Shown piece after piece: positions 16,111-54,896 of a stretch of 64,000 bases of DNA. Below the pieces are notes generated by a model that did no database searches, was not told the DNA's origin, and saw nothing but the letters and a program-made list of their open reading frames with translations. Position numbers and translations under genes: made by a program. The stretch lies in the sequence record OQ921332.1, one strand, 5' to 3'. Every line of letters begins with the position of its first letter. Position 1 is the first letter of the stretch. The DNA comes from Escherichia phage vB_EcoP_PAS59.

Positions 16111-16602
16111 ATGAATAATATTGACCCGTCAATAAAAGAAGCTCTTGATTACGACCCTTTGACTGGAGATTTCCGATGGGTTAAAACTTATGGAAAAGGA
16201 CACAAAGGGTCTATAGCTGGTTCTGTAAATACCAATGGGTATTTGAGAATCGTTTATAAAGGTGCTAGATACTACGCTCATCGACTTGCTTACTGGTGGG
16301 ACACTGGATTGCTTCCTGAAGAAGTAGATCACATAGACCGCAACAGGATAAACAACAAAAGAGAGAATCTTAGGGGGACTACTAGATCAGGAAATGGCCT
16401 AAACAAAGTAGCTCAGAGTAATAATTTATCAACCGGAGTGATTGGAGTGACTGTCCATAGAAGGAAAAGTGGCTCTATTGCTTACCGGGCGGTATTTAAA
16501 TCTAAGCACATAGGACTCTTCTCAACCATAGAAGAAGCCTCTAGGGAATATAATAAAGTCAAGGAGACTTACATAAATGACAATCAAAGCTTCATTAATT
16601 GA
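16111..16602 (+). CDS. HNH homing endonuclease with AP2-like DNA-binding domain
   Basis: 'LDYDPLTGDFRW...AHRLAYWW...DHIDRNRINNKRENLR' plus 'GVIGVTVHRRKSGSIAYRA'. Confidence 0.7.
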   Translation: MNNIDPSIKEALDYDPLTGDFRWVKTYGKGHKGSIAGSVNTNGYLRIVYKGARYYAHRLAYWWDTGLLPEEVDHIDRNRINNKRENLRGTTRSGNGLNKVAQSNNLSTGVIGVTVHRRKSGSIAYRAVFKSKHIGLFSTIEEASREYNKVKETYINDNQSFIN

Positions 16603-17224
16603 TAACTTCGGTTCAGATCTTACAGTAGTCAATGCTGCTCGTGTAACTATGGGGGTAGAAAGGGAAGAATTAAAAGAAAGTGACACTCGTCTAATAAATT
16701 TTCTAGCTCGGGAACGGCACGTAAGTCCTTTTCGTCACCCACAAGCGAGCTTCAGATGCGAAGCTCCTATAGCAATTGCACGACAGTTACAGAAGCATCA
16801 AGTTGGTTTTTCTTGGAACGAGATGAGTCGTAGATATAAAGATGGAGCAGTGGATATTTTCATACCTAAAGAAATCTTCTCCCGTCCAGATGATCTACAT
16901 TCTGGTTCTGGAATACTTCTTGAAGGGGAGGAAGAGGCAAAAGCTTTAGCTTTGTTTAACTCTGCGTACGAGGCATCTCTTGCTAGTTATGACGAATTGA
17001 TTAAGTTCGTAGCTCCTGAACAAGCTAGATTTGTTTTACCTCAAGGTATGGTAACTACTTGGTACTGGACTGGTAGCTTGTATGGCTGGTTTGAATTGTG
17101 TCGTCAACGACTATCATCCCATGCTCAATATGAAGTTCGACTATTTGCTCAGTCATTAGATGAAGAGATGGCTAAACTCTATCCAATCTCATGGGCAGCT
17201 TTGAAGAAAACTTTGGAGAGTTAA
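16577..17224 (+). CDS. thyX: ThyX-family (flavin-dependent thymidylate synthase-like) protein with variant signature
   Basis: 'HVSPFRH...ARQLQKHQVGFSWNEMSRRY' parallels ThyX 'SPFEH...RHR-x7-S..RY', but RHR is replaced by KHQ. Confidence 0.55.
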   Translation: MTIKASLIDNFGSDLTVVNAARVTMGVEREELKESDTRLINFLARERHVSPFRHPQASFRCEAPIAIARQLQKHQVGFSWNEMSRRYKDGAVDIFIPKEIFSRPDDLHSGSGILLEGEEEAKALALFNSAYEASLASYDELIKFVAPEQARFVLPQGMVTTWYWTGSLYGWFELCRQRLSSHAQYEVRLFAQSLDEEMAKLYPISWAALKKTLES

Positions 17225-17369
17225 TTTTGGAAGAAAACGATGATGATGTTTTCTGTACACGGTGCGGTATGACAGTTGATGATGCTTACGACCCTACAGT
17301 AGAGATTTGTCCTTGCTGCGGAGTTTGTGAGTATTGTTGTAGTCACAATTCAGATGAATAGGTAAAACT

Positions 17370-17555
17370 GTGGACTTATACAAAACATGTAGCTTCTGTC
17401 AAAAGCAGAAGCTTCTTATCAACTTCAAGCTGAACGAGGAAACAGGTTTGGGTCATGCTTTTTGTCATGATTGCAGACACTACCTTGAACAGAAACAATA
17501 TATAAACTGGTTGCATTATTTCAACCCCAGCATCTACGAGCACAAGGTTATCTAA
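17370..17555 (+). CDS. small Cys-rich (zinc-ribbon-like) protein
   Basis: CSFC...CHDC pattern. Confidence 0.4.
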   Translation: MDLYKTCSFCQKQKLLINFKLNEETGLGHAFCHDCRHYLEQKQYINWLHYFNPSIYEHKVI

Positions 17556-17876
17556 ATGATCAACGATAGTACATTTAGGACTGGTAACGGAAATGAAATC
17601 AGTCCTGCTGAAGTGATTAAACGACACAGAACACAGATGCTTATCCACTCCTATTTGTATTATTGGTTGGATGACCCAATCTGGTCTGACGATAAGTGGC
17701 AACAAGTGGCTGATGACTTAACCACCTTGCAAGAGATGTATCCTGAGCCTATTGGATTCTTCGATTCAGAGTTCAATGGATGGAATGGCTCCACTGGTAT
17801 GCATCTTCCTCATGACGAGCGTATAGCTTGTATGGCTACTGAAGTATACCGTTTACATAAGGACAAATCAATCTGA
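17556..17876 (+). CDS. hypothetical protein
   Basis: ORF abutting upstream stop. Confidence 0.4.
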   Translation: MINDSTFRTGNGNEISPAEVIKRHRTQMLIHSYLYYWLDDPIWSDDKWQQVADDLTTLQEMYPEPIGFFDSEFNGWNGSTGMHLPHDERIACMATEVYRLHKDKSI

Positions 17877-18054
17877 AATGTTTTAAATGTGAATCAACTC
17901 TTCTCCATTTGGACTCGAAAGTAATACGGGAGCTTGCCAAAGGCTCCCCGACTAAAGGGAAGAATAAGAAGTTTGTCGAAATTAAGGTTATAGGTATCCA
18001 TTGCTCAGAGTGTAAATCCTGTAGCTTCTTATATGAAGAACACGGAGGTAGGAA

Positions 18055-18792
18055 ATGAGTCGTAGAGAATCTCGGAAAGCATCACGGAGAGAATTACGTC
18101 GTGAAGCTCTCGTCACCAAGAAAGGAAAGCGGGAATTTGAAGAAGTAGTTCTTGCTAAGCCGGTAGTACCTCAGAACCAATTCCAGAGTGAGCTGCTTGA
18201 TGCAATTAAAACCAAACAGGTTGTATTCACAGATGCTCCTGCTGGCTGTGGTAAGACATTCGTAATCACTTCTACAGTGATCGATGCTCTGAAGAGTGGG
18301 AAGATTGAGAAGATTATCCTAAGCCGACCTGCTGTTGGTATGGGTAACAGTCTAGGATTACTTCCCGGTGGGCTTCGTGAGAAATTTGAACCATACCTGA
18401 TGCCAATTGTTGATGTTATCACTCAGCGTTATGGTAAAGGCTTCTATGAGTGTCAAATTGGTAATGGTAACATTGAGTTTGTACCTCTGGAATACCTCCG
18501 TGGCCGTTCATTCAACGATGCTATTGTGATTGTTGATGAGTTCCAGAATACCACTCCTGATGAAGCATATTCAATTATGACTCGTCTTGGTGAAACCTCT
18601 CAGATGTTCTGTATGGGGGACACCAATCAGCACGATATGCGTGGTGAGAGTGGTCTAGATTGGGCTACTGATTTCATATACCGTCACAAATTGTTTGAAT
18701 TTGCCGCTCTAGTAGATGGTGAATCGGATGATATTGTTCGTTCAGGTTTCTGTAAAGCTATTGTCAAAGCAATGGAATCTGAAAAATCATAA
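18055..18792 (+). CDS. phoH: PhoH-like ATPase
   Basis: Walker A 'DAPAGCGKTF', Walker B 'IVIVDEFQN', size typical of PhoH. Confidence 0.75.
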   Translation: MSRRESRKASRRELRREALVTKKGKREFEEVVLAKPVVPQNQFQSELLDAIKTKQVVFTDAPAGCGKTFVITSTVIDALKSGKIEKIILSRPAVGMGNSLGLLPGGLREKFEPYLMPIVDVITQRYGKGFYECQIGNGNIEFVPLEYLRGRSFNDAIVIVDEFQNTTPDEAYSIMTRLGETSQMFCMGDTNQHDMRGESGLDWATDFIYRHKLFEFAALVDGESDDIVRSGFCKAIVKAMESEKS

Positions 18793-18795
18793 ACA

Positions 18796-18804
18796 TAATG
18801 TATA
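18796..18804 (+). promoter_or_regulatory. TAATGTATA promoter-like element
   Basis: Exact 9-mer, 33 bp upstream of ATG 18837. Confidence 0.4.
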
Positions 18805-18836
18805 CTCCTTAGTGTACACTGATATATTAAGGAGTT

Positions 18837-19154
18837 ATGATGACCGATAAGGCGAAAAGAGATTATGCACAAGAACGAAGAACTGCAATCAAACGTGGGG
18901 AGACAGGTGTTGGTAGCAAGAGCGGAGATGCTCAGCGCCACCGTGCACGTCGCATCGTTGAAAAACGCGATGGAAAAGCTGCTGTCCGAGGTAAAGATGT
19001 TGGACACAAACGATCAATCAAGTCGGGAGGTTCTAATGCGTCAAGTAACTTACGTGTTGAATCAGTCTCTCGAAATCGCTCGAACGGCGGCAAAAGTGGA
19101 GATCGTGCTGGAAAATCAGCAGGCGGTCGCAAAGGAGCTTTAAGCTCAAGCTAA
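18837..19154 (+). CDS. basic Gly/Arg/Lys/Ser-rich small protein (frame uncertain; an alternative ORF 18865-19143 overlaps)
   Basis: AAGGAG before ATG at 18837; TAATGTATA element at 18796; terminator follows at 19160. Confidence 0.35.
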   Translation: MMTDKAKRDYAQERRTAIKRGETGVGSKSGDAQRHRARRIVEKRDGKAAVRGKDVGHKRSIKSGGSNASSNLRVESVSRNRSNGGKSGDRAGKSAGGRKGALSSS

Positions 19155-19159
19155 TATAA

Positions 19160-19190
19160 GGCTACCCATTTCGGGTGGCCTTTTCTTTTA
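19160..19190 (+). terminator. intrinsic terminator (8-bp stem with G-U, AUUUC loop, U-run)
   Basis: GGCUACCC-AUUUC-GGGUGGCC then UUUUCUUUU. Confidence 0.6.
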
Positions 19191-19210
19191 TGTAACCTAA
19201 GGTAATAAAT

Positions 19211-19462
19211 ATGTCTAAAGTAACTTATATCACTGTAACTGATTTCCTTCCTTCTCTGAACACAACTGAGAGTTATACTTTTCCTGTAGAAAATGTTACA
19301 AGCTCTGTTGAGATGATTCAGTTTAACAAAACAACAGCTCGTACTAATGTAACCCTTCGTGGCCCTGATGGCAAGTTCATCTCCTTCCGTGATAAGGGTG
19401 TTCCTAAGCGTATTGCTAAATCTATTGAAAATCTGAAACCTTTCCCCAACTTTGGTGCATAA
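19211..19462 (+). CDS. small protein, tandem paralog A
   Basis: 'KTTARTNVTLRGPDGKFISFRD...NLKPFP'. Confidence 0.45.
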   Translation: MSKVTYITVTDFLPSLNTTESYTFPVENVTSSVEMIQFNKTTARTNVTLRGPDGKFISFRDKGVPKRIAKSIENLKPFPNFGA

Positions 19463-19721
19463 TATGAAGATTAGCTTAATCCAAATTCGTGATCATCTCT
19501 TTAATGGTGACGCTCAGACTCATGACTACAAGGTTAATCAAGGACAACACCCTACCAATCACCTGATTGGAGGGATTTCTTTATTGCCTAATAAAACAGC
19601 ACGGACTAATGTAATGATTCGTGGTAAGGATGGTAAATTCCTCTCTTATCGTGACCCTGAAATCTGTGCTATTGTTCGTACAGCCATGAACAACCTAAAA
19701 CCATTCCCGACAGTGGAGTAA
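19452..19721 (+). CDS. small protein, tandem paralog B
   Basis: 'KTARTNVMIRGKDGKFLSYRD...NLKPFP'. Confidence 0.45.
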   Translation: MVHNMKISLIQIRDHLFNGDAQTHDYKVNQGQHPTNHLIGGISLLPNKTARTNVMIRGKDGKFLSYRDPEICAIVRTAMNNLKPFPTVE

Positions 19722-19724
19722 GTT

Positions 19725-20075
19725 ATGCCAGTACCTCAACGCCTAGAACGTCACTGCGTTCTCAAATGGGACAATATTCATGACAACCTCTCTAGTCAAG
19801 AGTTTCGTCAGTTTATTGAATTGACAGCGAAGATTAACCGAAACCGACCAGCTCGAAATTATGTGGTGGTTAGTGACAAGTATCCAGAGCTGTATGAGCA
19901 GGTGTGGGGTATGAAACTTGCACAAGTTCAGAGGAACAGTAACGAACGGAGAGAAGCTCGTAGACAGAGAGCAGAAGATATTCCAGCAGTCTTTTATGTG
20001 GATGAAGCGGAATCCTACGAACAGTTAGATATTGTTGAGGATAACCAAGCGTTCACTGATTTAATATACCGATAA
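19725..20075 (+). CDS. hypothetical protein
   Basis: ORF only. Confidence 0.4.
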   Translation: MPVPQRLERHCVLKWDNIHDNLSSQEFRQFIELTAKINRNRPARNYVVVSDKYPELYEQVWGMKLAQVQRNSNERREARRQRAEDIPAVFYVDEAESYEQLDIVEDNQAFTDLIYR

Positions 20076-20088
20076 CTATAAGGAGTGG

Positions 20089-21783
20089 GTGATGGATAAC
20101 CCTGATAAGTTACCTTTCATAACGGAGATGACAGTCGCTGATATAATCTCAAAACAGGCGAAGCATGGAGTCAACTTCAACAGAAGAAACGCTCGGTGGT
20201 TTGTTCATCTTCTCAAAGAGATTATTGTCAATATTGATAAAGAACTGATTCCTCTCCTCCCCAAAATGCGGGTGGATGGTTCAACTTATTCTAAACCTTT
20301 TAAGAAATCAGGTGCTTTACAGAAGTGGCCTCAGCTCTATTGCGATAGGGTTGGTCTTAAAAGAGAAGATATCGGTGGGGCGTTTACTTGCGTTGAGTAT
20401 GTAGATTTTGACCCATCAAAAGATGCACGTATTAAAGAAGCCTTGATGGATGAAGGTTTTATACCTCCAGAGTGGAATTATTCTAAGAAACCTTGGAATA
20501 CTTTTGAAATTCGTAAAGCTATGAAGAAGTATGGTACATACTCTGCATGGTATTCTGCTTGGATTCGAGGTAACGCTAAAGAGAAACAGACAGCAGAGAT
20601 GATAGATGCTGATATCCGAAGGTTTTTGGATAAGCACTTCCGTTATCACACTGTCAATTATATGAAAGCCTATGTCAGCGGTTTAGGTCTTAACCCTAAC
20701 AGGAAGAAGCCTGTAACCTTTGATGAAATCAAAAAAGCTTTGGCTACATCAAACAAGTGGCCTACAGCCCCTACAAACCTTGAGGAGACTCTTGAAGAGG
20801 GGCTTGGGGGTGAACTAGGGGGTGTAGGAAGTTTGCTTAAGAGACGCGTTGTAGCGGCTCACAGGCTAGGTTTGATTAGCGGGCTTATCGACAAGGAACG
20901 TAAAGATGGTAAACTGTCCGCCGAAGCTAATAGCTGCGCTACTCCGACATTTCGTTTTAAACATCGCATTGTTGTTAATATTCCTTCTCGCGGTTTGTTT
21001 GGTCACGAGTGCCGCAGTCTTTTTCAATCTGACTATTCCTCAGACGATAGTCATAACCATCCTTTCATCATTACCAACCATATCCCTGATGGGTGTTACG
21101 TACGAAAGGGTACTAACATTATCTACGAAATGGGAAAACCGGGCAAGAAAGACAAACCAATAGGTGCTTATAAATTTTATGTACCTGCTGGTCGTGAAGT
21201 CTTCTTAGGTTATGATGGCTCTGGTCTTGAGCTGAGGATGCTTGCTCATTACCTTATCAAAGAGTGTCGTGAGATGCTCGCTGAAGCAGAGCGGGAAAAC
21301 AACCCAGCTAAGAAACGGGAAGCTGAACGCGGTCTAGCTTCTGCTGTTATGTACAGAGATATTCTTTTAGAAGGGGATATTCACTCACATAACCAAAAAC
21401 TTGCTGGCCTTCCTACTCGTGATAATGCTAAAACGTTTATCTACGCATTCAACTACGGAGCTGGTGACGCTAAGTTAGGAAGCATCGTAGGTGGTGGCTC
21501 TGATGAAGGGGCTGTCATGAGGGCAAGATTCTTAGCAGAGAATCCTTGTATTGCAATTCTTATTGAACGTATGACAGAGAAAGCACAAAGTGGATACATC
21601 TACGGTGTGGATGGACGTCGTATTACAATGAGGAGGGATGCAACTGGAAAGGTTATGGTTCATAAAGCCTTAAACACCCTCTTACAGAGCGCTGGGGCGA
21701 TTGTTATGAAGTATGCAATGCTATTCCTTAATAAATGGATTGAGCGTGATGGTGTTCGTTGTGCGAAGGTTATTGACATGCAT
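20089..21783 (+). CDS. DNA polymerase (family A, T7-like), polymerase domain exon 1
   Basis: Motif A 'YDGSGLELRMLAHY', motif B 'RDNAKTFIYAFNYGAGDAKLG', 'ALNTLLQSAGA' as in T7 gp5; frame runs into intron (stop at 21811). Confidence 0.8.
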
Positions 21784-22390
21784 AAACTTCATTGTGCATG
21801 TAAAAGTTGGTGAACTCGGTGAAACCCGACCATTAAGTTGAGGGCAATACCGAGCTAAGCTATTAGGAGGTGATATGGCTAAGAAAGATCTAGTGTTAGA
21901 AACTACTGACACAGGATGTATCATCCCTATCTCACACAAACTTAATAAAGATGGTTACTTCAGAAAGGTAATAGATGGCAAATGGGTCATGTATCACCGA
22001 TACGTCATGGAAGAAAAGTTTGGAAAGATTCCTGATGGGTTTGAAGTAAACCATAAATGCAAGAACAGAGCTTGCTGTAACACAGACCACCTAGAGATTC
22101 TATGGGGGAGTGCTCATGCAATAGAATCCAATACAGGTAGAAACAGAGAAAGACAGGAAGCTGCTAAAGAATTCTGGCTTAATAATGAATGTACCGGTGT
22201 TGCTCTTGCGGAAAGATTTGGTGTGAGCTTTGGAATCGCTTGTAGATGGATTCGAAAGTGGAAAGTGTAGAGACTATCCTTTGGGAGTAGGGGGTTAACA
22301 GGGAAACCCTCGAAGCGCCAACAACAGCAAATTAGCTATGCTGTTATGATATAGTCCGATACCCGAAGTAATTTGGGAATAACATAAATG
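21784..22390 (+). mobile_element. group I intron (IA-like) carrying an HNH endonuclease ORF
   Basis: 5' exon ends in U; P1 pairing of AUGCAU (21778-83) with GUGCAU (21794-99); R-like 'AGAGACUAUC' (about 22266-75) and S-like 'AUGAUAUAGUCC' (about 22346-58); terminal G at 22390. Confidence 0.6.
21875..22270 (+). CDS. intron-encoded HNH homing endonuclease
   Basis: 'EVNHKCKNRACCNTDHLEILWGS'; AGGAGG before ATG. Confidence 0.7.
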   Translation: MAKKDLVLETTDTGCIIPISHKLNKDGYFRKVIDGKWVMYHRYVMEEKFGKIPDGFEVNHKCKNRACCNTDHLEILWGSAHAIESNTGRNRERQEAAKEFWLNNECTGVALAERFGVSFGIACRWIRKWKV

Positions 22391-22543
22391 GATGAAGGTC
22401 AGTTCACTGTACATCGTGATGATGTTAACAAACTTCGTACCCTCACTGAAGAGTGTGTTCGTAAAGCAGGAGAGTACCTCAAGATGGAATGTCCTCTGGC
22501 ATCTGATTGCAAAATTGGATTAAACTGGAATCACACCCACTAA
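22391..22543 (+). CDS. DNA polymerase exon 2 (motif C and C-terminus)
   Basis: Splicing gives '...VIDMH|DEGQF...' restoring HDE; ends 'KIGLNWNHTH' like family-A polymerase C-termini. Confidence 0.6.
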   Translation, partial: DEGQFTVHRDDVNKLRTLTEECVRKAGEYLKMECPLASDCKIGLNWNHTH

Positions 22544-22560
22544 TTTGTAGTGGAGGAATA

Positions 22561-22752
22561 ATGACTAGACATGTACATGAAACATGGGCCATTACGGGAG
22601 CAAAAGATGCAATTGTTTGCTGTAATGGACATTTCTGCATCTATAACACAGAAAGAAAAGCTATTCAAGAAGCGGCTGAGTTAATGGAAGAGTTTCCTGA
22701 TAAAGATTTCTCCATTAAGAATTTAACCATCAATCTCCCGTGGAAGAGCTGA
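22561..22752 (+). CDS. hypothetical small protein
   Basis: GGAGGAATA before ATG at 22561. Confidence 0.4.
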   Translation: MTRHVHETWAITGAKDAIVCCNGHFCIYNTERKAIQEAAELMEEFPDKDFSIKNLTINLPWKS

Positions 22753-23107
22753 ATCGTATTACGAAATGAACTAGTCTTATTGATTAGTTCTTTTTAAGGA
22801 GACAAGGAAGTGGAAGAAGTAAAAAGTTCTGAATGGTGCTTGAAGCAACAAAAACTCGCACAGGAAGAAGGACGTTTTGATGATGCCAAAGTGTATGGGG
22901 AGCTTTTCCGTACATGGGTTGAACGAGAGGAGAAAGATCAATGATGGATTTGATTCGTAAACCTGCTCCAAAATGGAATGTATATTTCCAAGATGCTACA
23001 GGAAAATTTCACAACCAACTGGTTTATTCTGACGAAGAACGCGATGAAGTCGCTGCTCAGATTAAAGCAGGCGGTGGTACAGTTCTCAAAATTTATGAAA
23101 GGGAGTA

Positions 23108-23353
23108 ATGATGACTTTAACATCTAAAGAATTAAAAGAGACTTTGGAAACAACTGAAGGTAAGCAATTCTTTGTTGCACAGATTCATTCTATGGGCAAA
23201 GATTCACTACGTCAGGCTTTGTATGAACTAACTACTGCGGTTCTTCAAACAGAAGCTGACGCTGAAGAAGCTCTAATTAAGCTAGAAGCCGCTCAGGCTG
23301 AAATTAATGGTTTGAAAGTTCGTATCAGTGAACTGGAAACACAGAATAAATAA
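23108..23353 (+). CDS. hypothetical coiled-coil protein
   Basis: ORF followed by terminator. Confidence 0.4.
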   Translation: MMTLTSKELKETLETTEGKQFFVAQIHSMGKDSLRQALYELTTAVLQTEADAEEALIKLEAAQAEINGLKVRISELETQNK

Positions 23354-23378
23354 GCTACCTTCGGGTGGCTTTTCTTGT
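23353..23378 (+). terminator. intrinsic terminator AGCUACC-UUCG-GGUGGCU plus U-run
   Basis: Read directly; after ORF 23108-23353. Confidence 0.6.
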
Positions 23379-23391
23379 CTAAGAGGCTAGT

Positions 23392-23784
23392 ATGAATATT
23401 GGTTTAGATTATGATGATACTTTTACAGTGGACAAGGAGATGTGGACCCACATTGTAGGTCTTATGAAATCTCGTGGACATGATGTTCGTATCGTCACTT
23501 ATCGTTTTGCTCAGCCCAATGGGTATTCAAATGAAGAGCTTCTAGCAGATGCAGCAAGTCTAGATATTCCTGTTATCTTTTGCAACGGTGTTCAGAAGGA
23601 TTCTGTCACTCAGAGCTTGGGTTTCTTTGTGGATGTTTGGATTGATGACTTCCCTGTCGGTATCCCTAAAATGGACCACCTAGATGGAATGCTAAAGGGT
23701 GTAAGACTTAATGACCTTAAAGCAGCACCTCCGGTAGAAATAGCCTCTCCTGTGTACTCTGAAGAGCCTCTGGTGATACGATGA
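23392..23784 (+). CDS. hypothetical protein
   Basis: ORF only. Confidence 0.4.
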   Translation: MNIGLDYDDTFTVDKEMWTHIVGLMKSRGHDVRIVTYRFAQPNGYSNEELLADAASLDIPVIFCNGVQKDSVTQSLGFFVDVWIDDFPVGIPKMDHLDGMLKGVRLNDLKAAPPVEIASPVYSEEPLVIR

Positions 23785-23956
23785 AGAAGTTTCTAATCTG
23801 GTCTATTGTAATTGCTCTGTTTCTTTGGGTGATGGATGCTCTTGGAGATTATAGCAAAGAAGACTGTGAGACTCGAATCTCTCAAGAGTTTAAATCAGAG
23901 ACCAAGTGGGTTGATGGTCGCTGTTACATCAAGGATTGGGGAAGGGTCTTATCAAG

Positions 23957-24136
23957 ATGAAGAAATACAGCGTGTGGTTCAATGAGGTAGAAGAGGGTTT
24001 TGATGAAGTTGGTGGTTGGGTTAATATCCTAAACACAGACGACATAGAAGAGGCCGAGAAATGCGCCCTAAACTACAACTCTGGATATTATGAAAGAAAT
24101 TGGGAGCACGATGAAATACTACAAAGTAGTTTATAA
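23957..24136 (+). CDS. small acidic protein, dispersed paralog A
   Basis: 'KYSVWFNEVEEGFDEVGGWVNILNTDDIEEAEK...YYE'. Confidence 0.4.
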   Translation: MKKYSVWFNEVEEGFDEVGGWVNILNTDDIEEAEKCALNYNSGYYERNWEHDEILQSSL

Positions 24137-24685
24137 GTTAAATTTATACCTTCGTGGAACAGGCAGTCTTGAAGTGTCAGGGTGTAAAGTTGTAGAAGAA
24201 GAAAACCCTATTAAAGCTGTTGAGAAGGTTAAAGAGACTATTAAGCTTGAAGAAATAGGAAGTTTTGAATTAGTTGATATTGAGGAAGTTAAATGATTTG
24301 GGTTCATACTTATAAGATTGGAAAGAAAATAGTTGACCGAATTCACTATGATGAAGCAGAAGCTCAGGCTTCTCTGGCAGTTCTTGGTGGTAAGGTGAGG
24401 AATTATGTAGAGGCTGGTAAGCCAGTTAACAATCCACCTGTTCTAGAGTATCTCGGAACAAACAATCCAATCACAGCAATGTCAATCATCAACAATAAAC
24501 AAAGGGAGTTGTTATAATGACTAATGAATATATTATTAAAAATGATGCGACAGGTTTGTTTCAATTCATCACAGATGCGACAGACTATGGACAACTTATC
24601 AATTTCGTAGAACTTGCAAAGCTCAAGGAAGAAATTGATGCTCTATATGCCGACGAGCAATCTAAACTCCTACAAGAGTCTCTAA

Positions 24686-24871
24686 GTGGAGATTACATCT
24701 GTGATGGTTGCACAATCTAAACGATATAAAGTCTGGCTAGATGAAGGAGCTGAGTATCCTGAAGGTTTTGGCTGGAAAGTTATTCTGGAAACAGATGATA
24801 TGGAGGAGGCTGAAACGAAAGCTGAATCTTTCAACTACTCATATTATGAGGACACATACGAGAATGGCTGA
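24686..24871 (+). CDS. small acidic protein, dispersed paralog B
   Basis: 'RYKVWLDEGAEYPEGFGWKVILETDDMEEAET...YYE'. Confidence 0.4.
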   Translation: MEITSVMVAQSKRYKVWLDEGAEYPEGFGWKVILETDDMEEAETKAESFNYSYYEDTYENG

Positions 24872-25370: not shown

Positions 25371-25605
25371 ACCACCTGTTGTTTATAAAGATAGTCTCAG
25401 AGATCAATACAGTAAGATGTTAAAAGATCAAGCTGAATCTAACTTACTTTATCAGCGAATAGTAGAAGAATCTAGATTAAAAGGAATGATGGAGTGGTAA
25501 CTTATGTTCTTTACTTCTTAGCTTTCTTAGGAATAATCTTTTTATCTATTATTATTGAATTTGGTTTAAGTAAGTTAGTTAACTATTTAGGTAGTAAGTA
25601 ATTAA

Positions 25606-25671
25606 TATTCTTTTAAATAGAGAATCAAAGTCCCTAGGAGTCCCCACAACCTAAATCAAGGATTCCTTAAT
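25606..25671. repeat. perfect 11-bp inverted repeat AAATAGAGAAT/ATTCTCTATTT with 44-bp spacer
   Basis: Read directly; lies in a 415-bp non-coding AT-rich region. Confidence 0.6.
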
Positions 25672-25775
25672 TCTCTATTTTTATCTCGCAGGTGTCTCCT
25701 GCCCTTCGGTACTTGCAAGGGTTACAATGATTGCCCAATATACAAGCCTGCAATAGCTTTACTAGCTATACCATA

Positions 25776-25784: not shown

Positions 25785-25846
25785 CTACTTGTCATTATCT
25801 ACTACCAAAAAGGTTATAGTATAATAGAACCTTATCTGTATAGGTG

Positions 25847-48229: not shown

Positions 48230-48249
48230 AAAAGCCCCCGAAGGGGCTG
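48230..48249 (-). terminator. hairpin AGCCCC-UUCG-GGGGCU (weak U-tract)
   Basis: After stop of 48254-50377. Confidence 0.3.
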
Positions 48250-48253
48250 TTAA

Positions 48254-50377
48254 TCATTTAGCAGCTTTCAGCGTAGCAACCTCCTTCTTCAACTCATCAA
48301 CCTGCTTCATCAACTCTAAAATAGCTTCATGATGAAGTGCCGCAGCAACACCATAAGTGTCTACAGACTTTGTATCTTTAACAATCGAACCATCTTGAAG
48401 CTCTGTATCCCCGGTAACTTTGACAGCATCAGGGAAGATTTTTTCCACATCTTGTGCAATAAACCCATAACCCACTTTATCACCGGATGTTTTAAGTTTC
48501 CAAGAAACACCTTTTATCTCTTTCATCTTGTCCAAAGGTTTTTCTATTCTAGAAATATCATCTTTTATTCTTTCATCAGAATCAGTGCTCCAACCACCCG
48601 GGCAAACAGCTCTTCCATCCTTGAGAAATTGAAAATGTTTTAGATTAGTTCCGGCTGTAGATGTTGATATGGTAACGTCACCATCACGCTCTGTGTAAAG
48701 TCTTCCATATATAGCAGTGTTAGCGCTGTTTTTAAATTCAATGAAAGATTGATTATTGTTGTTACCTACAAAAGTTGCTTTACCTTCACGAGAAATTAAC
48801 TGACCTTTAGCATCAACGTTCCCACTGCGAACAATTAAGTTAGTTGGAACGTTTAAGTTACCATCACTGCCAAAATCAAAGGCTTCATTAGCACCCGAAG
48901 TTTTATTGAAAACAGTAACACGGGCAGCATAGGTAGATCCAACAGTCCCTACCATCCTGAACGAAGCATACCCTTCAACATCAGTGCCAGTTTTATATTC
49001 AGATATAATAGAGCCGCCGTTAATAGAAGTTCCAGTGTTTGGAAGAACACTATCACTGTTAATGACGGACCAAGAGGTATTAGCTGCTACGAAACCACCT
49101 TTAGCTCGAATAACCCAAACACCTACGAAAGAGTTAGGGCGGATTTCTGATACGTTTTGTCGTCCGTAAACGGCGCTGGAGTTGGATGCTTTGAAGTTAA
49201 CAGCAAGACCCCTGTTGGAACCAGTTCCTGCTCCAGTACTTGCCTGCAAGAGTTGAAGGTCGAGACCTGTGTCGGTCACATAAAGAGAACCACTCGCAGA
49301 GTTTGCAACAAATAGCCTAGCAAAGTTACTACTCGACCCAGTAGATACAGCACCAGTAATCTCCGGGGCCGCAGACTCGTGTATCTTCTGGGTAAAATCC
49401 CCACTACCCCGACCGAACAATCCTTTTAGAGAACCGCTTTGAACACCATTCTTATCTGGAACACGGAAAGTAGTAGAACCGTCCCCTAAAGAGTATTGAG
49501 AGCGTTTAAGAGGGTCTGCCAGCCAATCAGCATCAGAGATAGGTGTTATCATTTGCGCATATGCCCAAAGCTCTGGATAATCTGTACGAGAAAGAAGTTG
49601 ACCATCTGACGGGATATCATTAGATGGGATATAAGCCCTACTGTCAATTAAACGGAAATCACCAATGTTGAAATTGGAGATACCATTCATGGTAGGGCCA
49701 CCAGAACCTCCACCACTGTTACGAAGCTGCCTTAGTGTGACTGCATCATAGTCACCTACAGCATCTGCTACAGTAACCGGTTGCTGAAAGGTAACTTTCT
49801 CGGTAAATTGTTTGATATCAGAGTTGATACCAGTTCGAGTTACACCAATGGTGCGTCCTTTGGAATCTTTTACATAGGAACCGATTGAAGCGAAAGGTAA
49901 ATCCTCAATCTCAGGACGATAACGTTTAGAGTAAATAGGATACTTGGTTTCTACACCACCATCATTCAAATCTACAACTTGAAGACGACCAGCAGTATGA
50001 ACTTCTACTCCCTGAACAGAAGAAGCATAGCTCCCAATCTTAATTGCGTTCTCTGGTGTAACTTTAATCATATCTACAGATTCTACACCATTAGCCCCTT
50101 CTGACCGGAAAGGTACATCATTAGCTACAAATGGATCAGCTTTGAATAAAGCACCTTCCATAACAGGGTCAATAGCATCCGTAACATATTGCTTGGTTGC
50201 ACCTTCTGCCTTGGTCATATAAGTTGCGCTCGCATCAGACTTCTGGAGGTACTTGTCAGTCAGATCAATAGCACCAGCAACACCATCTACAGTAGATACG
50301 CCCACCACAGCAGCATCACGAGTCACAACCACATGTGGCATCATAATGCCAGATTTGGGCATTAATTCTCTAGACAT
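48254..50377 (-). CDS. tail fiber with collar-like domain and C-terminal intramolecular chaperone (S74-like) domain
   Basis: 'DAVGDYDAVTLRQL', 'DGQLLSRTDYPELWAYAQ...GSTTFRVPDKNGVQ', C-terminal 'DERIKDDISRIEKP...GFIAQDVEKIFPDAV...'. Confidence 0.6.
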   Translation of the reverse strand: MSRELMPKSGIMMPHVVVTRDAAVVGVSTVDGVAGAIDLTDKYLQKSDASATYMTKAEGATKQYVTDAIDPVMEGALFKADPFVANDVPFRSEGANGVESVDMIKVTPENAIKIGSYASSVQGVEVHTAGRLQVVDLNDGGVETKYPIYSKRYRPEIEDLPFASIGSYVKDSKGRTIGVTRTGINSDIKQFTEKVTFQQPVTVADAVGDYDAVTLRQLRNSGGGSGGPTMNGISNFNIGDFRLIDSRAYIPSNDIPSDGQLLSRTDYPELWAYAQMITPISDADWLADPLKRSQYSLGDGSTTFRVPDKNGVQSGSLKGLFGRGSGDFTQKIHESAAPEITGAVSTGSSSNFARLFVANSASGSLYVTDTGLDLQLLQASTGAGTGSNRGLAVNFKASNSSAVYGRQNVSEIRPNSFVGVWVIRAKGGFVAANTSWSVINSDSVLPNTGTSINGGSIISEYKTGTDVEGYASFRMVGTVGSTYAARVTVFNKTSGANEAFDFGSDGNLNVPTNLIVRSGNVDAKGQLISREGKATFVGNNNNQSFIEFKNSANTAIYGRLYTERDGDVTISTSTAGTNLKHFQFLKDGRAVCPGGWSTDSDERIKDDISRIEKPLDKMKEIKGVSWKLKTSGDKVGYGFIAQDVEKIFPDAVKVTGDTELQDGSIVKDTKSVDTYGVAAALHHEAILELMKQVDELKKEVATLKAAK

Positions 50378-50390
50378 ATTTAATTCTCCT

Positions 50391-50410
50391 TAAAGCTCCC
50401 CGAAGGGAGC
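50391..50410 (-). terminator. hairpin GCUCCC-UUCG-GGGAGC between the two fiber genes
   Basis: Followed by UUUAAGGAG (SD of the next gene), so more likely a stabilising hairpin than a full terminator. Confidence 0.3.
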
Positions 50411-50419
50411 ATTGTTAGT

Positions 50420-53400
50420 TTATTTAGCAGCCAGCTTAGCTTCCAGCTCTTCTACTTTCTCAGACAAGCACTTAATTGCTGCAAGAGCATCTAATAAAAG
50501 CGGGTTAGTGTCGAGAGTCATAACTCCACTTTTTTCCGCACTGTGAACATACTGAGGGTCAACCTGTTCTGCCTGTTGTGCAATCACCCCTCGACGTGGA
50601 GATTTCTTCTCATCACTCTTATATGTAAAATTCTTAAACTCAAGAGCTTTAATGTTACTTAGAGCGACACTTAAATCTAAATCGTCTCCAATGTCCTTAA
50701 CACTCGCGTCAGAGGTTCCAGCATTCTGAAGAGTTGTCCACGGAAGGTTGGTTTTGAGTTCTTTTGGATTGTTGTTTATGGTGTTAGTTCTAACATAAGC
50801 CGAACCATTCAAGCTTATCCAAAACTGGCAGATTCTGTTTACGGCATAAGAAGTTTGGAAACCTCCCCCATTTGCAGCTGCCCACGGCGAATTACCATCC
50901 GAGTCTGTTATGAACTGGTTATAGTTAGAATCAGGTAACACTGTACCACCCTGAACACCAACACCATAATCATCCTTCACCAAAACACGACCCCTAGGAG
51001 TCTCTATATTCCCAGCTTCAGTGAAATCAAAAGTTGTACCTTTCGAAGAAGTTTTATTATAAACCCCAATTCTTGCAGAGTATGAACCACCAACAATGCC
51101 TTGCATTTTGAACTCAGCTGATCCTTCTGGCTCTGTGCCAACCCTATAATCGGATATCAAGTTGCCACCTGTAACGGTTGTACCGTCCGACGGTCTTATG
51201 TCATCGCTATTAATAACAGACCAAGAAGTGTTAGCTGCAATGAAAGCACCCTTAGCACGAATCACCCATACACCGACGAAAGATCTAGGCCTAACTTCGT
51301 CTGCCTGTCCATAAATAGGGTTATAAGAATTAGCATTAAAATACACATAAGTGTATCGGTTTGGTGTGCTGGTAGCCGCTGTCGTAACAAATCCGTTTGT
51401 GAGATCAGTCTCGCGAACACTAAAGGCATCTGTCCCGCTGGATATTACCGCCCTCCCGTTTGCATCAACAGCACCAATACGCCCTGATATGTTAGGCGCG
51501 GCACTTTCGTAAACGTTACCCGCTGTCAATAATCCACCCTGATCGCCCCGACCAAATAGCCCCGGAATTGACCCGCTTTGAACCCCGTTGCGGTCAGGAA
51601 CTCGGAAGGTCGTTGTTCCGTTCCCTGAAGAGTATTTACCCCTCTGTTGGGGGTCTGCCAACCAAGCTGAATCCGTTATGGGGGTGAGCATTTGAGCATA
51701 TGCCCATAACTCAGGGTAATCAGCACGGTTAAGAAGCTGTCCGTCTGATGTTACATCATTTGGGTGAATAAAAGCACGACTGTCTACTAGTCGGAAGTCT
51801 CCAATATTGAAGTTGGAGATACCATTCATTGTAGCCCCACCACCGCCACCACCTTGGTTCTTCAACTGACGATAAGTAACAGCGTCGTAATCACCTACAG
51901 CATCAGGAACAGTAACCGGTTGCTGGAAAGTAGCTTTCTGTGTAAACGTTTTAAGATCAGAGTTTACACCGTCAGTAGTTACAGCAGCAGCACCTATAGC
52001 AGCAGGTGTTGGCTTATTGTTCTCTGCATAGAACAAATAGTCCCCAGAGGGTGTTGACAGATAAGGTACACTGGAACTAGCAATAACTGTACGGGCTAAG
52101 TGATCACCAAACACAGATGAATCTGAACCACTTCTAGAAACCATGTTGACTTGACTGCTGTCATCTTTAATACGTCTTAAAGAGATTCCATTGTTCAGAA
52201 CCAAGTTACCATCCATGATACCACCAGCTTTGGCAATAGCTCCAATTGTTGCAGGGGTGAGATTTACATTACCAGTATTGTCATTAGGGGATAACCCATT
52301 AACTGTTACAATATAAGGCTTCTGAGCTTGCACTTGGCCTTTGTATTCAGTATCTGTAGCCGAGTTAGGAGATCGAATTGTTTCACCACCAGTCCAGTCT
52401 GGGAGTCGGATGTTAACATAGTTAGTAGAATCTGCATCAGTAATACCGTCAGCTTGCTTACCCCAAGAGAAGTATTGCTTAGCACCTGCTTGCCATTCTG
52501 TTTCACTGACAACAGGGAGCTGACCACTGAGTAAAGATGGACCCAAATCTGCTGCCGATTCTTTAGAAACAAGACGACCATCAGCAGGAAGAATCCCGGG
52601 ATATGAAATATTCTTAGCTGGGTCATAAGGGAACATTACCATTTCACCAAGATACAGAGAAGGGTTTCCTGTAGGAATGGTGATATCAATGTTACCAGTG
52701 GAGTCTGGGATTCTAGAGTTAACAGTAACAACGCGAGGTTCTGTTTTCAAAGGCTCTAAGATTTTATCAGAAGCCACGGTGTAGAATGAATACTTAGTAT
52801 CTTCCCAAACTAGAATTGTCTCACCAGCCTTTCGGTTAATCGCATCAGCATCAGCATCAGCTTTAGTATTATAGGCTTTGATGAACCTGTCAACTTTCTT
52901 GTCGGTTTCTTCTTTACTGTAAGAAGCTACGTTTTCTACTTTATCCAACCCTACCGTGCTTTTATCAATAGTCAAAGAGACGTTACCGCTTTCGGCAGGT
53001 CCACCATTAACACTGATATCTCTAACAGAAGGGATTAGGTTTGCAATGTTTTCCAAAGTGGTTTTATGGACTGTGTTATCAGTTTGGTCTACGTAAAAAC
53101 CTAAATCCCCAGCGACAGGAACACCAGTATCAACAGTATTTAAATCTTTAACCGATCCATCTTTACCCGGAAGACCCTCAGGAATACCAAGGCTGATCTT
53201 ACCAGTGGTGGGGTCAAAATCTCCAGTAGCAGGTTGTCCCGGACTTAAAGTTGTCACTTCTACAGTCATTCCTAACAAGATATCCAGCTGTTTGTCAACT
53301 TCTACTAACTTTTGATTGATTAATGCGATAGCATTATTGGCATTAGCAACGGCAGCGTTAGATTGAGCAACAAGTTGCATCAAACGAGCATCTTGATCTC

Positions 53401-53641
53401 TGAAGTCTTGTTTAAGAGCTTCAATATCTTCACGTAACAGAACACCTTGCTGGTAGAGCTTCTCAACTTCTGCAATCAGATCATCAACCGTACCAAATTT
53501 AGCCTCTGCCAACAGTGACCAATATTTAGCATCAGCAGCATATTCAGCTGCTTGCTTATAGGCTCCAATAGAGCCTTCTGTTGCACCAAACTGACCAACG
53601 TTGTTAGGATTAGTTGGCTCTTGGTTGTTATAAACGATCAT
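50420..53641 (-). CDS. large tail fiber/spike, paralog of 48254-50377 with about 530-aa N-terminal extension
   Basis: Shares about 300 aa of collinear blocks with the neighbour; C-terminal S74-like domain 'GVIAQQAEQVDPQYV...'. Confidence 0.6.
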   Translation of the reverse strand: MIVYNNQEPTNPNNVGQFGATEGSIGAYKQAAEYAADAKYWSLLAEAKFGTVDDLIAEVEKLYQQGVLLREDIEALKQDFRDQDARLMQLVAQSNAAVANANNAIALINQKLVEVDKQLDILLGMTVEVTTLSPGQPATGDFDPTTGKISLGIPEGLPGKDGSVKDLNTVDTGVPVAGDLGFYVDQTDNTVHKTTLENIANLIPSVRDISVNGGPAESGNVSLTIDKSTVGLDKVENVASYSKEETDKKVDRFIKAYNTKADADADAINRKAGETILVWEDTKYSFYTVASDKILEPLKTEPRVVTVNSRIPDSTGNIDITIPTGNPSLYLGEMVMFPYDPAKNISYPGILPADGRLVSKESAADLGPSLLSGQLPVVSETEWQAGAKQYFSWGKQADGITDADSTNYVNIRLPDWTGGETIRSPNSATDTEYKGQVQAQKPYIVTVNGLSPNDNTGNVNLTPATIGAIAKAGGIMDGNLVLNNGISLRRIKDDSSQVNMVSRSGSDSSVFGDHLARTVIASSSVPYLSTPSGDYLFYAENNKPTPAAIGAAAVTTDGVNSDLKTFTQKATFQQPVTVPDAVGDYDAVTYRQLKNQGGGGGGATMNGISNFNIGDFRLVDSRAFIHPNDVTSDGQLLNRADYPELWAYAQMLTPITDSAWLADPQQRGKYSSGNGTTTFRVPDRNGVQSGSIPGLFGRGDQGGLLTAGNVYESAAPNISGRIGAVDANGRAVISSGTDAFSVRETDLTNGFVTTAATSTPNRYTYVYFNANSYNPIYGQADEVRPRSFVGVWVIRAKGAFIAANTSWSVINSDDIRPSDGTTVTGGNLISDYRVGTEPEGSAEFKMQGIVGGSYSARIGVYNKTSSKGTTFDFTEAGNIETPRGRVLVKDDYGVGVQGGTVLPDSNYNQFITDSDGNSPWAAANGGGFQTSYAVNRICQFWISLNGSAYVRTNTINNNPKELKTNLPWTTLQNAGTSDASVKDIGDDLDLSVALSNIKALEFKNFTYKSDEKKSPRRGVIAQQAEQVDPQYVHSAEKSGVMTLDTNPLLLDALAAIKCLSEKVEELEAKLAAK

Positions 53642-53650
53642 AATCTCTCC

Positions 53651-54421
53651 TTAACTGTAATGTTTAATTCCGTATAATTCACGAGAGCTGTGAAGACGGT
53701 CGATAGTTCGAGGGATAACTAGAGGAGAACCTGAATACTCAGCTTTCTTGCTCTGTTCAACTACTTCATCTAAGATGGCTTTCCCTAAAGCCGACCACTT
53801 CTGAACCCCATTATCATCTTGAACAAACAAGCTTGCATGACGTAATGTGAAATATAGAAGAAGCTCTGGAGCTATTGTTAAAATTGCACTTGTATCAGAA
53901 TCCTCATGAAACTCCGGAGGGTCTGCATAATAGCTAAGAATTACCGAATTCTCCGCTGGAATAAGAGGGCTTCCATCATCAGGGTAGACCGGAGTATCGG
54001 CGTTGATGGCTGGGTAGAACAGGAACCGACTTCCCAACCTAGTAAAACTCACCTCTCCCTGATTCCATTTAGTTGGGTTTACTGAGTTATTTCTTTTCAG
54101 CCAATCTAACTCTTCTGGAGAAGTTACTCGGAACATATGTCCATTACTTGCTCTCATCATCCACTGAGCTTCTAAGTAGTCTGGTGGAATAAAAGCCACA
54201 CCATCTTTAATATCTAAATATACTTCTTTTTCCAGAGGAGGAATTCGTAAGTTACGATAGATTTCTTTCTCTGCAAAGTTAATAAAGTTTGGAATCTGAT
54301 TAACAAATTCATCATCATCCCTGTCAGCCCAGAGGGACACAGCTTTCTTGAGCCATCCGTAGGTATTGATGGGATATTGAACGTCAGGCAACATAGGATA
54401 CCTCCTTCCAGTTTGTGCCAT
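53651..54421 (-). CDS. tail/adaptor structural protein (putative)
   Basis: Position between capsid and fibers. Confidence 0.3.
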   Translation of the reverse strand: MAQTGRRYPMLPDVQYPINTYGWLKKAVSLWADRDDDEFVNQIPNFINFAEKEIYRNLRIPPLEKEVYLDIKDGVAFIPPDYLEAQWMMRASNGHMFRVTSPEELDWLKRNNSVNPTKWNQGEVSFTRLGSRFLFYPAINADTPVYPDDGSPLIPAENSVILSYYADPPEFHEDSDTSAILTIAPELLLYFTLRHASLFVQDDNGVQKWSALGKAILDEVVEQSKKAEYSGSPLVIPRTIDRLHSSRELYGIKHYS

Positions 54422-54896
54422 TGATTATTAGGCTTATTGTGCTTGAAGAGACTCCAAACTTCCTAGCTAAAGCTCTAGCTCCGAACTGTCTGTCCCTCGG
54501 TTTATAGTTCTCTAAACAGAAAAGAACTTGTTCTTTAGTAAGTTTGGAATTAGGATTATCCTCAAGATTCCTTGGTGTTGAGAGTTTTGTTTCATAAGCA
54601 TGTACACAGTTTTCTTGTTGAGTACACCACTCTAGATTCTCAATCCTGTTGTCATCTTTTATTCCATTCTTATGGTTGACATACTCCTTCCCTTCTACTT
54701 TAGGAAGAAAGAGTTCAGCTATGACTCTATGTTCTAGGTAAGATTTCTTCTTGAAGGTTAACACACGATATCCCTTACTATTAATACATCCAGCACGTTG
54801 ACCTTTCTGTTTATTGAATATGTTACTCATAGACCAGAAAAGATGCCCTGTATTCGGGTTATATGTAAAAGCTCCTCTGAAATCTGGCATTGCCAT
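54384..54896 (-). CDS. HNH homing endonuclease with C-terminal HTH
   Basis: 'YVNHKNGIKDDNRIENLEWCTQQEN'; C-terminal 'ALARKFGVSSSTISLIINGTNWKEV'. Confidence 0.65.
   Translation of the reverse strand: MAMPDFRGAFTYNPNTGHLFWSMSNIFNKQKGQRAGCINSKGYRVLTFKKKSYLEHRVIAELFLPKVEGKEYVNHKNGIKDDNRIENLEWCTQQENCVHAYETKLSTPRNLEDNPNSKLTKEQVLFCLENYKPRDRQFGARALARKFGVSSSTISLIINGTNWKEVSYVA

Follow-up and report, generated by a model that had tools for sequence, protein, structure and literature searches.

What are eight genes for nucleases of the His-Me finger type doing in a single phage genome, and how can such genes lie between, or even inside, tightly packed neighbors without killing them? Homing-endonuclease genes are well known in virulent phages. 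The question is raised here by a stretch of 64,000 nucleotides of Escherichia phage vB_EcoP_PAS59 (record OQ921332.1), hereafter called the window, which is a Suseptimavirus (Gordonclarkvirinae) genome, essentially phage vB_EcoP_PAS59. This phage is a published 79,199-bp Suseptimavirus and a therapeutic candidate, and the paper describing it makes no mention of HNH, homing, endonucleases or introns. An original prediction, made from the sequence, had described a heavy load of homing-endonuclease genes comprising at least eight nuclease genes. We found that all eight open reading frames (ORFs) are present and match nuclease families, and that seven of them behave as mobile homing-endonuclease genes, while the ORF at 30744 belongs, by its distribution, to the core genome. 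That the seven were acquired independently as homing-endonuclease genes is very probable and is overall the best explanation. From their sequences, they can be classed as one intron-encoded gene (ORF 21875); five free-standing I-HmuI-like HNH_3 genes with AP2-like or helix-turn-helix tails; and one free-standing gene with an endonuclease VII (endo VII) motif, of the F-CphI/Hpy99I type. We also found that the free-standing genes sit at exact gene boundaries, in the same orientation as their neighbors, that they take over the neighbor's ribosome-binding site, start or 3' end, and that they bring with them a recoded copy of the gene end that they displace, the neighboring gene thereby staying intact. 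The eight genes are the following:

16111-16602, + strand: HNH_3 nuclease gene (PHROG 99, 5.3e-44), free-standing, between a thioredoxin-like gene and thyX
21875-22270, + strand: intron-encoded HNH nuclease gene with a C-terminal helix-turn-helix (HNH_3, 9.2e-12; PHROG 6254, 2.8e-41)
27043-27537, + strand: HNH-AP2 nuclease gene, free-standing, in the Rz/Rz1 overlap (the PHROG 99 match spans residues 2-163)
30033-30542, + strand: HNH-AP2 nuclease gene, free-standing, its start within the 3' end of an exonuclease gene
30744-31148, + strand: conserved classical HNH-type gene (CxxC...DH...CxxCH), core (PHROG 3106 'HNH endonuclease', 2e-37)
31419-31922, + strand: HNH_3 nuclease gene, free-standing, at the very end of the + block
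39164-39613, - strand: endo VII-motif nuclease gene, free-standing, between two internal-virion (ejection) protein genes
54384-54896, - strand: HNH_3 nuclease gene, free-standing, with a C-terminal helix-turn-helix, between an Ig-like head protein gene and a virion structural protein gene

As predicted, three of these genes cluster within the last 1.9 kb of the + block (30027-30542, 30744-31148 and 31419-31922), and two (ORFs 39164 and 54384) sit in the minus-strand structural block. Six of the proteins match Pfam HNH_3 (E 2.9e-10 for 16111, 9.2e-12 for 21875, 6.3e-14 for 27151-27537, 4.3e-12 for 30027, 1.8e-18 for 31419 and 5.1e-14 for 54384), with scores of 40-66 bits against a cut-off of 24.8. 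The product of ORF 39164 matches Endonuclease_7 (5.2e-25, 87.6 bits), and that of ORF 30744, which has no Pfam match (nothing meaningful even at E<=5), is recognized by seven HNH PHROGs besides PHROG 3106. None of the eight proteins matches NCBIfam. When all 612 six-frame ORFs of the window were searched with a local hidden Markov model (HMM) built on the HNH_3 copies, exactly the six HNH_3 ORFs were recovered, and no extra copies, relics or pseudogene remnants. The label HNH-AP2, given to the copies at 16111, 27043, 30027 and 31419, stands only in part. All four belong to PHROG 99, to which they align over their full length, whereas the AP2 domain speaks against a uniform label: it stays under the Pfam cut-off of 33.3 bits in 27043 (25.8) and 30027 (30.5), and gives no Pfam match even at E<=5 in 16111 and 31419. 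The 30027 ORF, whose start is likely the ATG at 30033, encodes a protein that weakly matches the plant AP2 protein WRI1 (E 0.007).

The mobility of these genes becomes visible when the window is compared with its relatives. A megablast search with positions 16000-32000 returned 98 records, all from Escherichia coli or Shigella podophages of the phiEco32/SU7 type (Gordonclarkvirinae), headed by Bas86 (96.5%), SU7 (94%) and then Bas87. Presence and absence were judged among these ~98 related records; empty sites were mapped by local blastn of the window against Bas86, SU7, Bas87 and 101114UKE3; and the insertion sequences alone were searched against 50,697 GenBank phage records, the resulting counts including GenBank/RefSeq duplicates. 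The insertion-free alleles that the original prediction proposed to look for do exist, and precise empty sites were found. Indeed, 21784-22390 is a precise 607-bp insertion relative to the uninterrupted polymerase genes of Bas86, Bas87 and 101114UKE3; 30040-30538 is a precise 499-bp insertion missing from Bas86, SU7, Bas87 and 101114UKE3; 39157-39609 is a precise 453-bp insertion missing from Bas86, Bas87 and 101114UKE3; and 54391-54882 is a 492-bp insertion missing from 101114UKE3 and Bas87. At the spanin locus the cassette measures 545 bp, and most relatives are shorter there by 545 bp. At the two remaining sites the segment is replaced or absent: 101114UKE3 has, in place of 16083-16579, 252 bp holding a 71-aa ORF, and 31414-31919 is replaced or absent in the compared relatives. 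Over the region compared, 101114UKE3 carries a counterpart of ORF 30744 only, and nothing annotated as a nuclease. Conversely, the window is itself empty at two sites that are occupied in Bas86:

1947-1977, + strand: empty site, where Bas86 has a 487-bp HNH insertion (Bas86_0080) after codon 10 of a ligase-like gene
18794-18839, + strand: empty site, where Bas86 has a 445-bp HNH insertion (Bas86_0049, after phoH)

Thus single-locus presence and absence, with precise empty alleles in close relatives, demonstrates the mobility of the HNH_3 genes. Their distribution is patchy and at odds with genome relatedness: the 16111 gene occurs in 8 phage records, the 54384 gene in 11 related records, the spanin HNH gene in ~8 records as two sequence types, and the polymerase intron in 57 records, of which 10 are Gordonclarkvirinae (ECBP2 carries the same intron element) and most others T7-like phages. 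ORF 31419 is shared with Bas89 only (98.2% identity), and neither the 30027 insertion nor the endo VII gene at 39164 has a real DNA match in the 50,697 GenBank phage records. A protein 99% identical to that of 30027 is encoded, in the same context, on one Sequence Read Archive (SRA) contig that has neither 31419 nor the endo VII gene, and the latter was found on one SRA contig, again in the same context, besides PAS59 itself, one of whose proteins is 100% identical to the endo VII-like protein of the window. Together, the seven mobile insertions sum to 3,568 bp (5.6% of the window), each with a G+C content of 0.37-0.41, below the window's 0.42. This is the highest mobile-gene load among the relatives examined: in addition to the core gene, Bas86 has five such genes and 101114UKE3 has none. 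Insertions of homing endonucleases have been described as the main break in synteny in Gordonclarkvirinae (PMC11990801). Just past HNH31419, the switch between the + and - blocks (31920-31960) is itself variable: it holds an 88-aa ORF in Bas86 and Bas87, an 11-codon mini-ORF in 101114UKE3 and an annotated bidirectional terminator in SU7.

The original prediction named loss of intact HNH catalytic residues as the observation that would speak against it. The copies were aligned to I-HmuI (PDB 1U3E; positions D74, H75, N87 and N96) and, apart from the substitutions given below, no such loss was found. The catalytic His (H75) is invariant across the aligned copies; the structural Asn (N87) is kept in five, ORF 21875 having a His there (...NTDHLE); ORFs 16111, 27043 and 30033 retain all four residues; and 54384 aligns with I-HmuI at E 1.7e-4. 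Two substitutions make activity less certain and count against the idea that all copies are active enzymes: the D74 position is Asn in 54384 and 21875, and the N96 position (residue ~97), which could be placed in all copies but 21875, is Ser in ORF 31419. The same Ser is found in the four closest homologs of 31419, one of them in a Pectobacterium phage, and the next Asn is nearly invariant. The endo VII-like protein (149 aa) carries CAIC...DHCH...R...CSSCN at about residues 87-126, and among solved structures the restriction enzyme Hpy99I comes nearest to it (E 3e-9). The residues CX2-4C, DH(D)H, R, CX2C and N, together with their C-terminal placement, define an 'endonuclease clade' that includes Hpy99I (PMC6083498); ORF 39164 has all these 'DHHRN' motif residues, and they lie in its C-terminal part as in that clade.

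It had also been proposed that the four HNH-AP2 copies keep an internal record of divergence. On the contrary, they are only 27-38% identical to one another, and for the three copies tested closer homologs exist outside this genome (52% for 30027, 61-62% for 31419 and, in Pseudomonas, Vibrio and Klebsiella phages, 40-43% for 27043). Because of this low mutual identity and of these closer outside homologs, the four copies are best read, from their sequences, as independent acquisitions from a very large pool (the HNH-AP2 family occurs in 2,057 phage records) and not as a within-genome divergence series.

Windowed identity profiles demonstrate that the identity of the nuclease genes is decoupled from that of their flanks. 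Compared with Bas89, HNH31419 is 98-100% identical while both flanks are at 53-90% (mostly 70-85%); compared with PE006, the intron is at 87-98% (with one 76% stretch in its ORF) and the exons at ~80%; compared with SU7, the exons are at 89-100% and the middle of the intron ORF at 68-69%; and compared with IME267, HNH54384 and its capsid side are at 95-100% (mostly 99-100%) and the tail side at 55-89%. The idea that endonucleases drive mosaicism beyond their own genes holds in part, since an effect on a flanking gene is clearly suggested at thyX only:

16577-17224, + strand: thyX allele linked to the 16111 nuclease gene, which overlaps the thyX start by 26 nt

The thyX allele shared by the window and Bas86 is 69-70% identical in nucleotides and 71% in amino acids to that of 101114UKE3 and Bas87, whereas the neighboring regions are at 87-97%. 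This allele is found at >=80% identity in nine records and HNH16111 in eight, at least six records being in both lists. Such a linkage is the pattern that would be expected if the enzyme targets the other thyX allele. In the subfamily, thyX (16577-17382) falls into two allele classes, ~71% identical at the protein level, the window's class being tightly linked to the upstream HNH gene; in Bas87, another HNH gene (40% identical) lies ahead of the other class. Elsewhere in the window, the tail-fibre region (48249-52262) is unaligned or at 70-81% against all relatives, far more diverged than the rest of the structural block, which fits receptor-binding-protein mosaicism unrelated to the nuclease genes.

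The thyX linkage is also what would be expected for localized marker exclusion, and it bears on a reading in which the variable nuclease genes are kept mainly for the benefit of the phage, for instance by interference competition or exclusion of co-infecting relatives. Interference with a competing phage has been reported for an intron endonuclease of phage PhiPA3 (PMC11620839). However, nothing in the sequence separates such a benefit from selfish spread, and several close relatives, such as 101114UKE3, carry the core HNH gene only. We regard this reading, which adds to homing, as possible but rather doubtful.

In the homing scenario that we prefer, each enzyme would, during co-infection with a relative lacking the gene, nick or cut the empty allele near its own insertion point, and in the recombinational repair that follows the nuclease gene would be copied into it, at times together with neighboring sequence such as the linked thyX allele. 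It is presumed that the proteins are active nucleases, that homing proceeds by break repair, that the intron splices itself, that disruption of the target confers immunity and, for features discussed below, that one gene starts at AUU and that a new signal peptide is functional; it weighs against the scenario that cleavage, homing and splicing are deduced from sequence. One may ask whether most of the ORFs are, instead, remnants of earlier invasions that are decaying and no longer active. Degeneration is expected of homing genes after fixation and, besides the Ser of 31419 at a metal-binding Asn, 27043 lacks a canonical start and 16111 has a weak ribosome-binding site. However, all the ORFs are full length and the six-frame HMM search found no frameshifted relics; the Ser variant is conserved in a clade diverged to 55-90% identity; 31419, the very copy that carries it, shows the most recent transfer (98-100% against flanks at 53-90%); six phages share the AUU or AUC codon that follows a strong ribosome-binding site; and none of the seven mobile genes is fixed in the subfamily. 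We consider the relic explanation unlikely.

One of the seven genes reaches its site within an intron, and the label 'intron' that ORF 21875 had received proved correct, in view of its splice sites, of the covariation in P1 and P9 and of the restored polymerase. The parts of this locus are:

20089-21783, + strand: DNA polymerase exon 1, ending ...VIDMH, with U21783 at the 5' splice site
21784-22390, + strand: predicted group I intron in polymerase motif C (between H and DE), of the T7-like phage type, with terminal G22390
22391-22543, + strand: DNA polymerase exon 2, DEGQFTV...NHTH then stop

Once spliced, the predicted polymerase is identical at 613/614 positions to the uninterrupted Bas86 polymerase, with its junction between MH and DE. 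The internal guide GUGCAUGU pairs with the exon sequence ACAUGCAU, P1 being paired at 8/8 positions. In an alignment of six homologs (window, SU7, PE006, 13a, VSG32 and Vp_R1), P1 shows compensatory changes, the U/C of the guide matching the A/G of the exon, and P9 takes the form of three different helices with one common GUAA closing loop. ORF 21875, which has a strong ribosome-binding site (aggaggtgatATG), sits between the two halves of the ribozyme core, and homologous ORFs exist in SU7, PE006, 13a, VSG32, Vp_R1 and JeanTinguely. Over almost all of its length, the intron shows 66-69% identity to elements in phage 13a, JeanTinguely (Bas64), VSG32, Vp_R1 and others, and both RefSeq and the BASEL authors annotate gene 5 as a two-piece join in phages of the 13a/JeanTinguely type. 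On the other side of the balance stands the Rfam result: at gathering thresholds nothing matches anywhere in the window, and the intron is visible in the permissive mode only, with an Intron_gpI match (including the core element GAUAUAGUC) of 30.9 bits where the gathering score is 50 (local E 6.8e-6; 5.4e-4 over the whole window). Taken together, these features indicate that 21784-22390 is a genuine group I intron, whose self-splicing would excise it from the polymerase message and restore ...MH-DE.... SU7 and PE006 annotate the intron-bearing polymerase as two separate coding sequences plus an HNH gene, an annotation that is probably wrong. On the opposite strand within the polymerase gene (20418-20500, - strand), a sub-threshold Rfam match to the alphaproteobacterial small RNA ar15 (30.7 bits, E 0.023) is probably due to chance. 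A tRNA scan of the window found none.

The six other genes are free-standing, and it is the way in which they are inserted that keeps their neighbors intact. Recoded duplicates are seen at five junctions, the spanin locus described further on being one of them. The endo VII gene takes the ribosome-binding site and the ATGG of the downstream ejection-protein gene and ends with GGAGGTAAATAATG, restarting that gene. HNH54384 opens with MAMPD, the five residues with which the virion structural protein begins in empty alleles, and a new ribosome-binding site and a recoded start (ATGTTGCCTGAC, ATG at 54394) are provided by the 3' end of HNH54384. HNH30033 begins at an ATG that pre-exists in the 3' end of the exonuclease gene, the exonuclease tail changing from LDKTWE to LNKEW; and in Bas86 the ligase-like gene is interrupted after its codon 10 by the HNH gene Bas86_0080, beyond which a recoded restart is found. 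Besides these junctions, HNH31419 uses the ribosome-binding site and the ATG of the 11-codon mini-ORF seen in 101114UKE3. We lean, with some reserve, towards the view that such 'seamless insertion' is a general design, in which the recoded duplicate keeps the host gene functional, destroys the target site and avoids repeat-mediated loss, its consequences at the spanin locus included. The duplicate would break up the original target, giving immunity to self-cleavage, and its recoding would make it a poor substrate for repeat-mediated deletion. It tells against this generalization that the duplicates at the exonuclease and ejection-protein junctions are short (5-15 nt), and could be due to chance or microhomology. 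A limited literature search found no description of recoded duplications at free-standing homing genes, which is weak evidence of novelty.

The most elaborate case is found at the genes for the inner (i-) and outer (o-) spanins, Rz and Rz1, around the nuclease gene at 27043-27537:

26714-27055, + strand: i-spanin (Rz), a full reading frame of 113 aa with no need for splicing (115 aa in 101114UKE3)
27485-27751, + strand: o-spanin (Rz1), with its signal peptide MLTKKKQKSCLVIFLASSLMAC in the other frame of the 3' end of the nuclease gene
27544-27606, + strand: original Rz 3' end, now read in the o-spanin frame only, near-identical to the nuclease-free allele (first base G vs A)

In relatives without the nuclease gene, such as 101114UKE3, Rz and Rz1 overlap and the o-spanin signal (MKRLSQFFTMCVLVMSMSAC) lies within Rz; the annotation of phage Paul likewise shows the two spanin genes overlapping, and places SPII cleavage at 19/20. 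An o-spanin whose start and signal are inside the i-spanin gene, which defines the overlapped type, is found in 101114UKE3 and in Paul but not in the window. Here, the original 3' end of Rz has been duplicated in recoded form to make up its last 19 codons (26999-27055), which retain GLFNERQQQAA with 8/11 codons synonymously changed; this alternative C-terminus is kept in SU7, Bas86 and Bas87, and a diverged equivalent exists in EK010 and KM01. A stop interrupts the old o-spanin frame, and of the ancestral signal a truncated 17-codon relic persists inside Rz (26946-27002). The new signal MLTKKKQKSCLVIFLASSLMAC, which fits the usual lipobox pattern, is read from the other frame of the C-terminal codons of the nuclease gene (KEKAKELFGDFSRF), and in the annotation of SU7 the o-spanin starts at the equivalent ATG. 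The nuclease C-terminus is ancestral, since alignments with unrelated homologs extend to residues 162-164, and it is therefore the signal peptide that is the overprinted novelty. A second cassette type, in EK010 and KM01 (nuclease 63% identical), has the same anatomy.

The start of this nuclease gene is also unusual. Its ORF contains no ATG, GTG or TTG before 27151, and position 27043 is an ATT codon; homologs found by tblastn align from residue 1-2. GGAGG (27031-27035), 7 nt and ATT are kept in four phages, EK010 and KM01 having GAGGG, 7 nt and ATC. The gene thus probably starts at AUU, a weak non-canonical start codon, and the conserved arrangement suggests that initiation is deliberately weak and non-AUG. 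As for entry into the nuclease frame by a -1 frameshift from Rz, it was rejected, since no slippery heptamer exists at 27035-27050. The insertion would turn overlapped Rz/Rz1 genes into separated ones, with a recoded Rz C-terminus, a new predicted o-spanin signal and an AUU-started nuclease gene.

The GenBank records of Bas86 and Bas87 contradict this account, as they give the Rz-like spanin as a two-piece join with a nested HNH gene, and the Bas86 record likewise gives its COOH.NH2 ligase as a two-piece join around a nested HNH gene. By analogy, the spanin nuclease gene of the window would lie in a self-splicing intron, Rz being spliced from ~27030 to ~27575 and ending ...NALTNKPKS, and the near-identical original 3' end is indeed still present downstream. 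However, this downstream copy is needed anyway as o-spanin coding sequence; the unspliced Rz is already complete, its last 11 residues being kept by synonymous recoding; and four phages have its stop codon at an identical position, EK010 and KM01 having a diverged equivalent. Moreover, the nuclease ORF fills 27043-27537 of the 545-bp insert, which leaves no room for a ribozyme core, and no Intron_gpI signal is detected at the spanin locus even at E<=1, though the polymerase intron is detected. Because the unspliced Rz is complete and because there is neither room for a ribozyme nor a group I signal, we reject the join annotation, and splicing at this locus is very unlikely. To us, the joined spanin genes of Bas86 and Bas87 and the ligase gene of Bas86 look like free-standing insertions with recoded gene-end duplicates, not introns.

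The eighth gene, ORF 30744, follows another logic. It is at the same place in 97 of the ~98 related records, no empty site being seen, and its identity tracks genome relatedness (99.5% with Bas86, 90% with 101114UKE3, 77-79% with Kuravirus-type phages). For this reason it is not counted as a homing gene, and the claim of a heavy load is upheld for seven genes out of eight. That all eight are homing-endonuclease genes is extremely unlikely, since, although ORF 30744 matches HNH PHROGs and sits between two mobile HNH genes, this distribution is that of a core gene. A PDB sequence search with its protein gave chance-level matches only, and a single-sequence AlphaFold2 model had a mean predicted local distance difference test (pLDDT) score of 45. 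The protein has a Gly in place of the middle Asn of classical HNH proteins (DGFQVLCKEPCH), and the end of the gene overlaps a conserved 100-aa ORF (31108-31410) with a weak WYL-domain match (E 9e-6). A terminase-associated HNH role, like that of HK97 gp74, was considered and set aside: by the Bas86 annotation, tens of kb separate the portal/terminase region from this gene, which lies at the end of the early/middle + block. The label 'terminase small subunit' that its counterpart bears in some records, such as 101114UKE3, found no support here.

As a whole, the window adds a well-supported case to a phenomenon already known, and the families to which its intron and its endo VII-motif gene belong have both been described before; the insertion design, above all at the spanin locus, is the sole part that might interest the specialist. 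This design explains how nuclease genes can be located inside overlapping or tightly coupled genes without killing them and, if it is true, several GenBank 'two-piece join' annotations, which suggest introns, misread such duplications. Likely annotation errors are flagged by this work for split polymerase genes and for 'joined' spanin and ligase genes. Moreover, the base-resolution map of the seven mobile nuclease genes and of their empty sites could be used for homing crosses or to engineer insertion sites.

It remains to set these elements beside the systems that they resemble. Free-standing seg and mob homing genes of T4-like phages are known for 'intronless homing', and mobE reportedly splits nrdA in phage Aeh1. 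Like the genes of the window, seg and mob genes lie between or inside conserved genes, vary among relatives and are linked to divergent alleles of their neighbors; unlike them, the window insertions systematically reuse the translation signals of the neighbor and carry recoded duplicates of the displaced end. Compared with I-HmuI (PDB 1U3E), the intron-encoded HNH nicking endonuclease of Bacillus phage SPO1, the HNH_3 core aligns, including the D/N-H, the structural Asn and the distal Asn, and the catalytic part is N-terminal and the DNA-binding part C-terminal in both; on the contrary, five of the six window copies are free-standing and not intron-encoded, four have an AP2-like tail and not a helix-turn-helix, and one has a Ser at Asn96.

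The endo VII-like gene shares with the F-CphI/'DHHRN' endo VII-motif family and with Hpy99I (PMC6083498) the C-terminal CxxC...DH(D/C)H...R...CxxC-N and, like members of the F-CphI family, it is present or absent with a precise junction; it differs in having no associated intron and in being inserted between two internal-virion protein genes, with one other occurrence found (an SRA contig). As for the polymerase intron, the phi-I and W31 introns interrupt the position of E. coli Pol I site 881 (motif C) and carry their ORF in P6a (PMC3428280), and self-splicing of these homologs is reported in a work cited in that paper. The window intron has the insertion point of these T7-like phage introns (after the motif C His, Pol I site 881), the same exon end (UGCAU), intron start (AAAC), GAUAUAGUCC core element and terminal G, and a homologous 131-aa HNH ORF likewise placed between the core halves, the nucleotide identity extending over almost the whole element. 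Unlike them, it is hosted by a Gordonclarkvirinae polymerase and not by one of Autographiviridae, its P5 and P8 regions are of other length, its Rfam score is sub-threshold and its splicing is predicted. The window intron is evidence that this element of T7-like DNA polymerase genes has passed into a podovirus subfamily unrelated to the T7-like phages. Finally, whereas the Rz/Rz1 genes of phage Paul and of the relatives without the nuclease gene overlap, those of the window are separated by the nuclease gene, and the signal peptide of its o-spanin is a non-homologous replacement of theirs.

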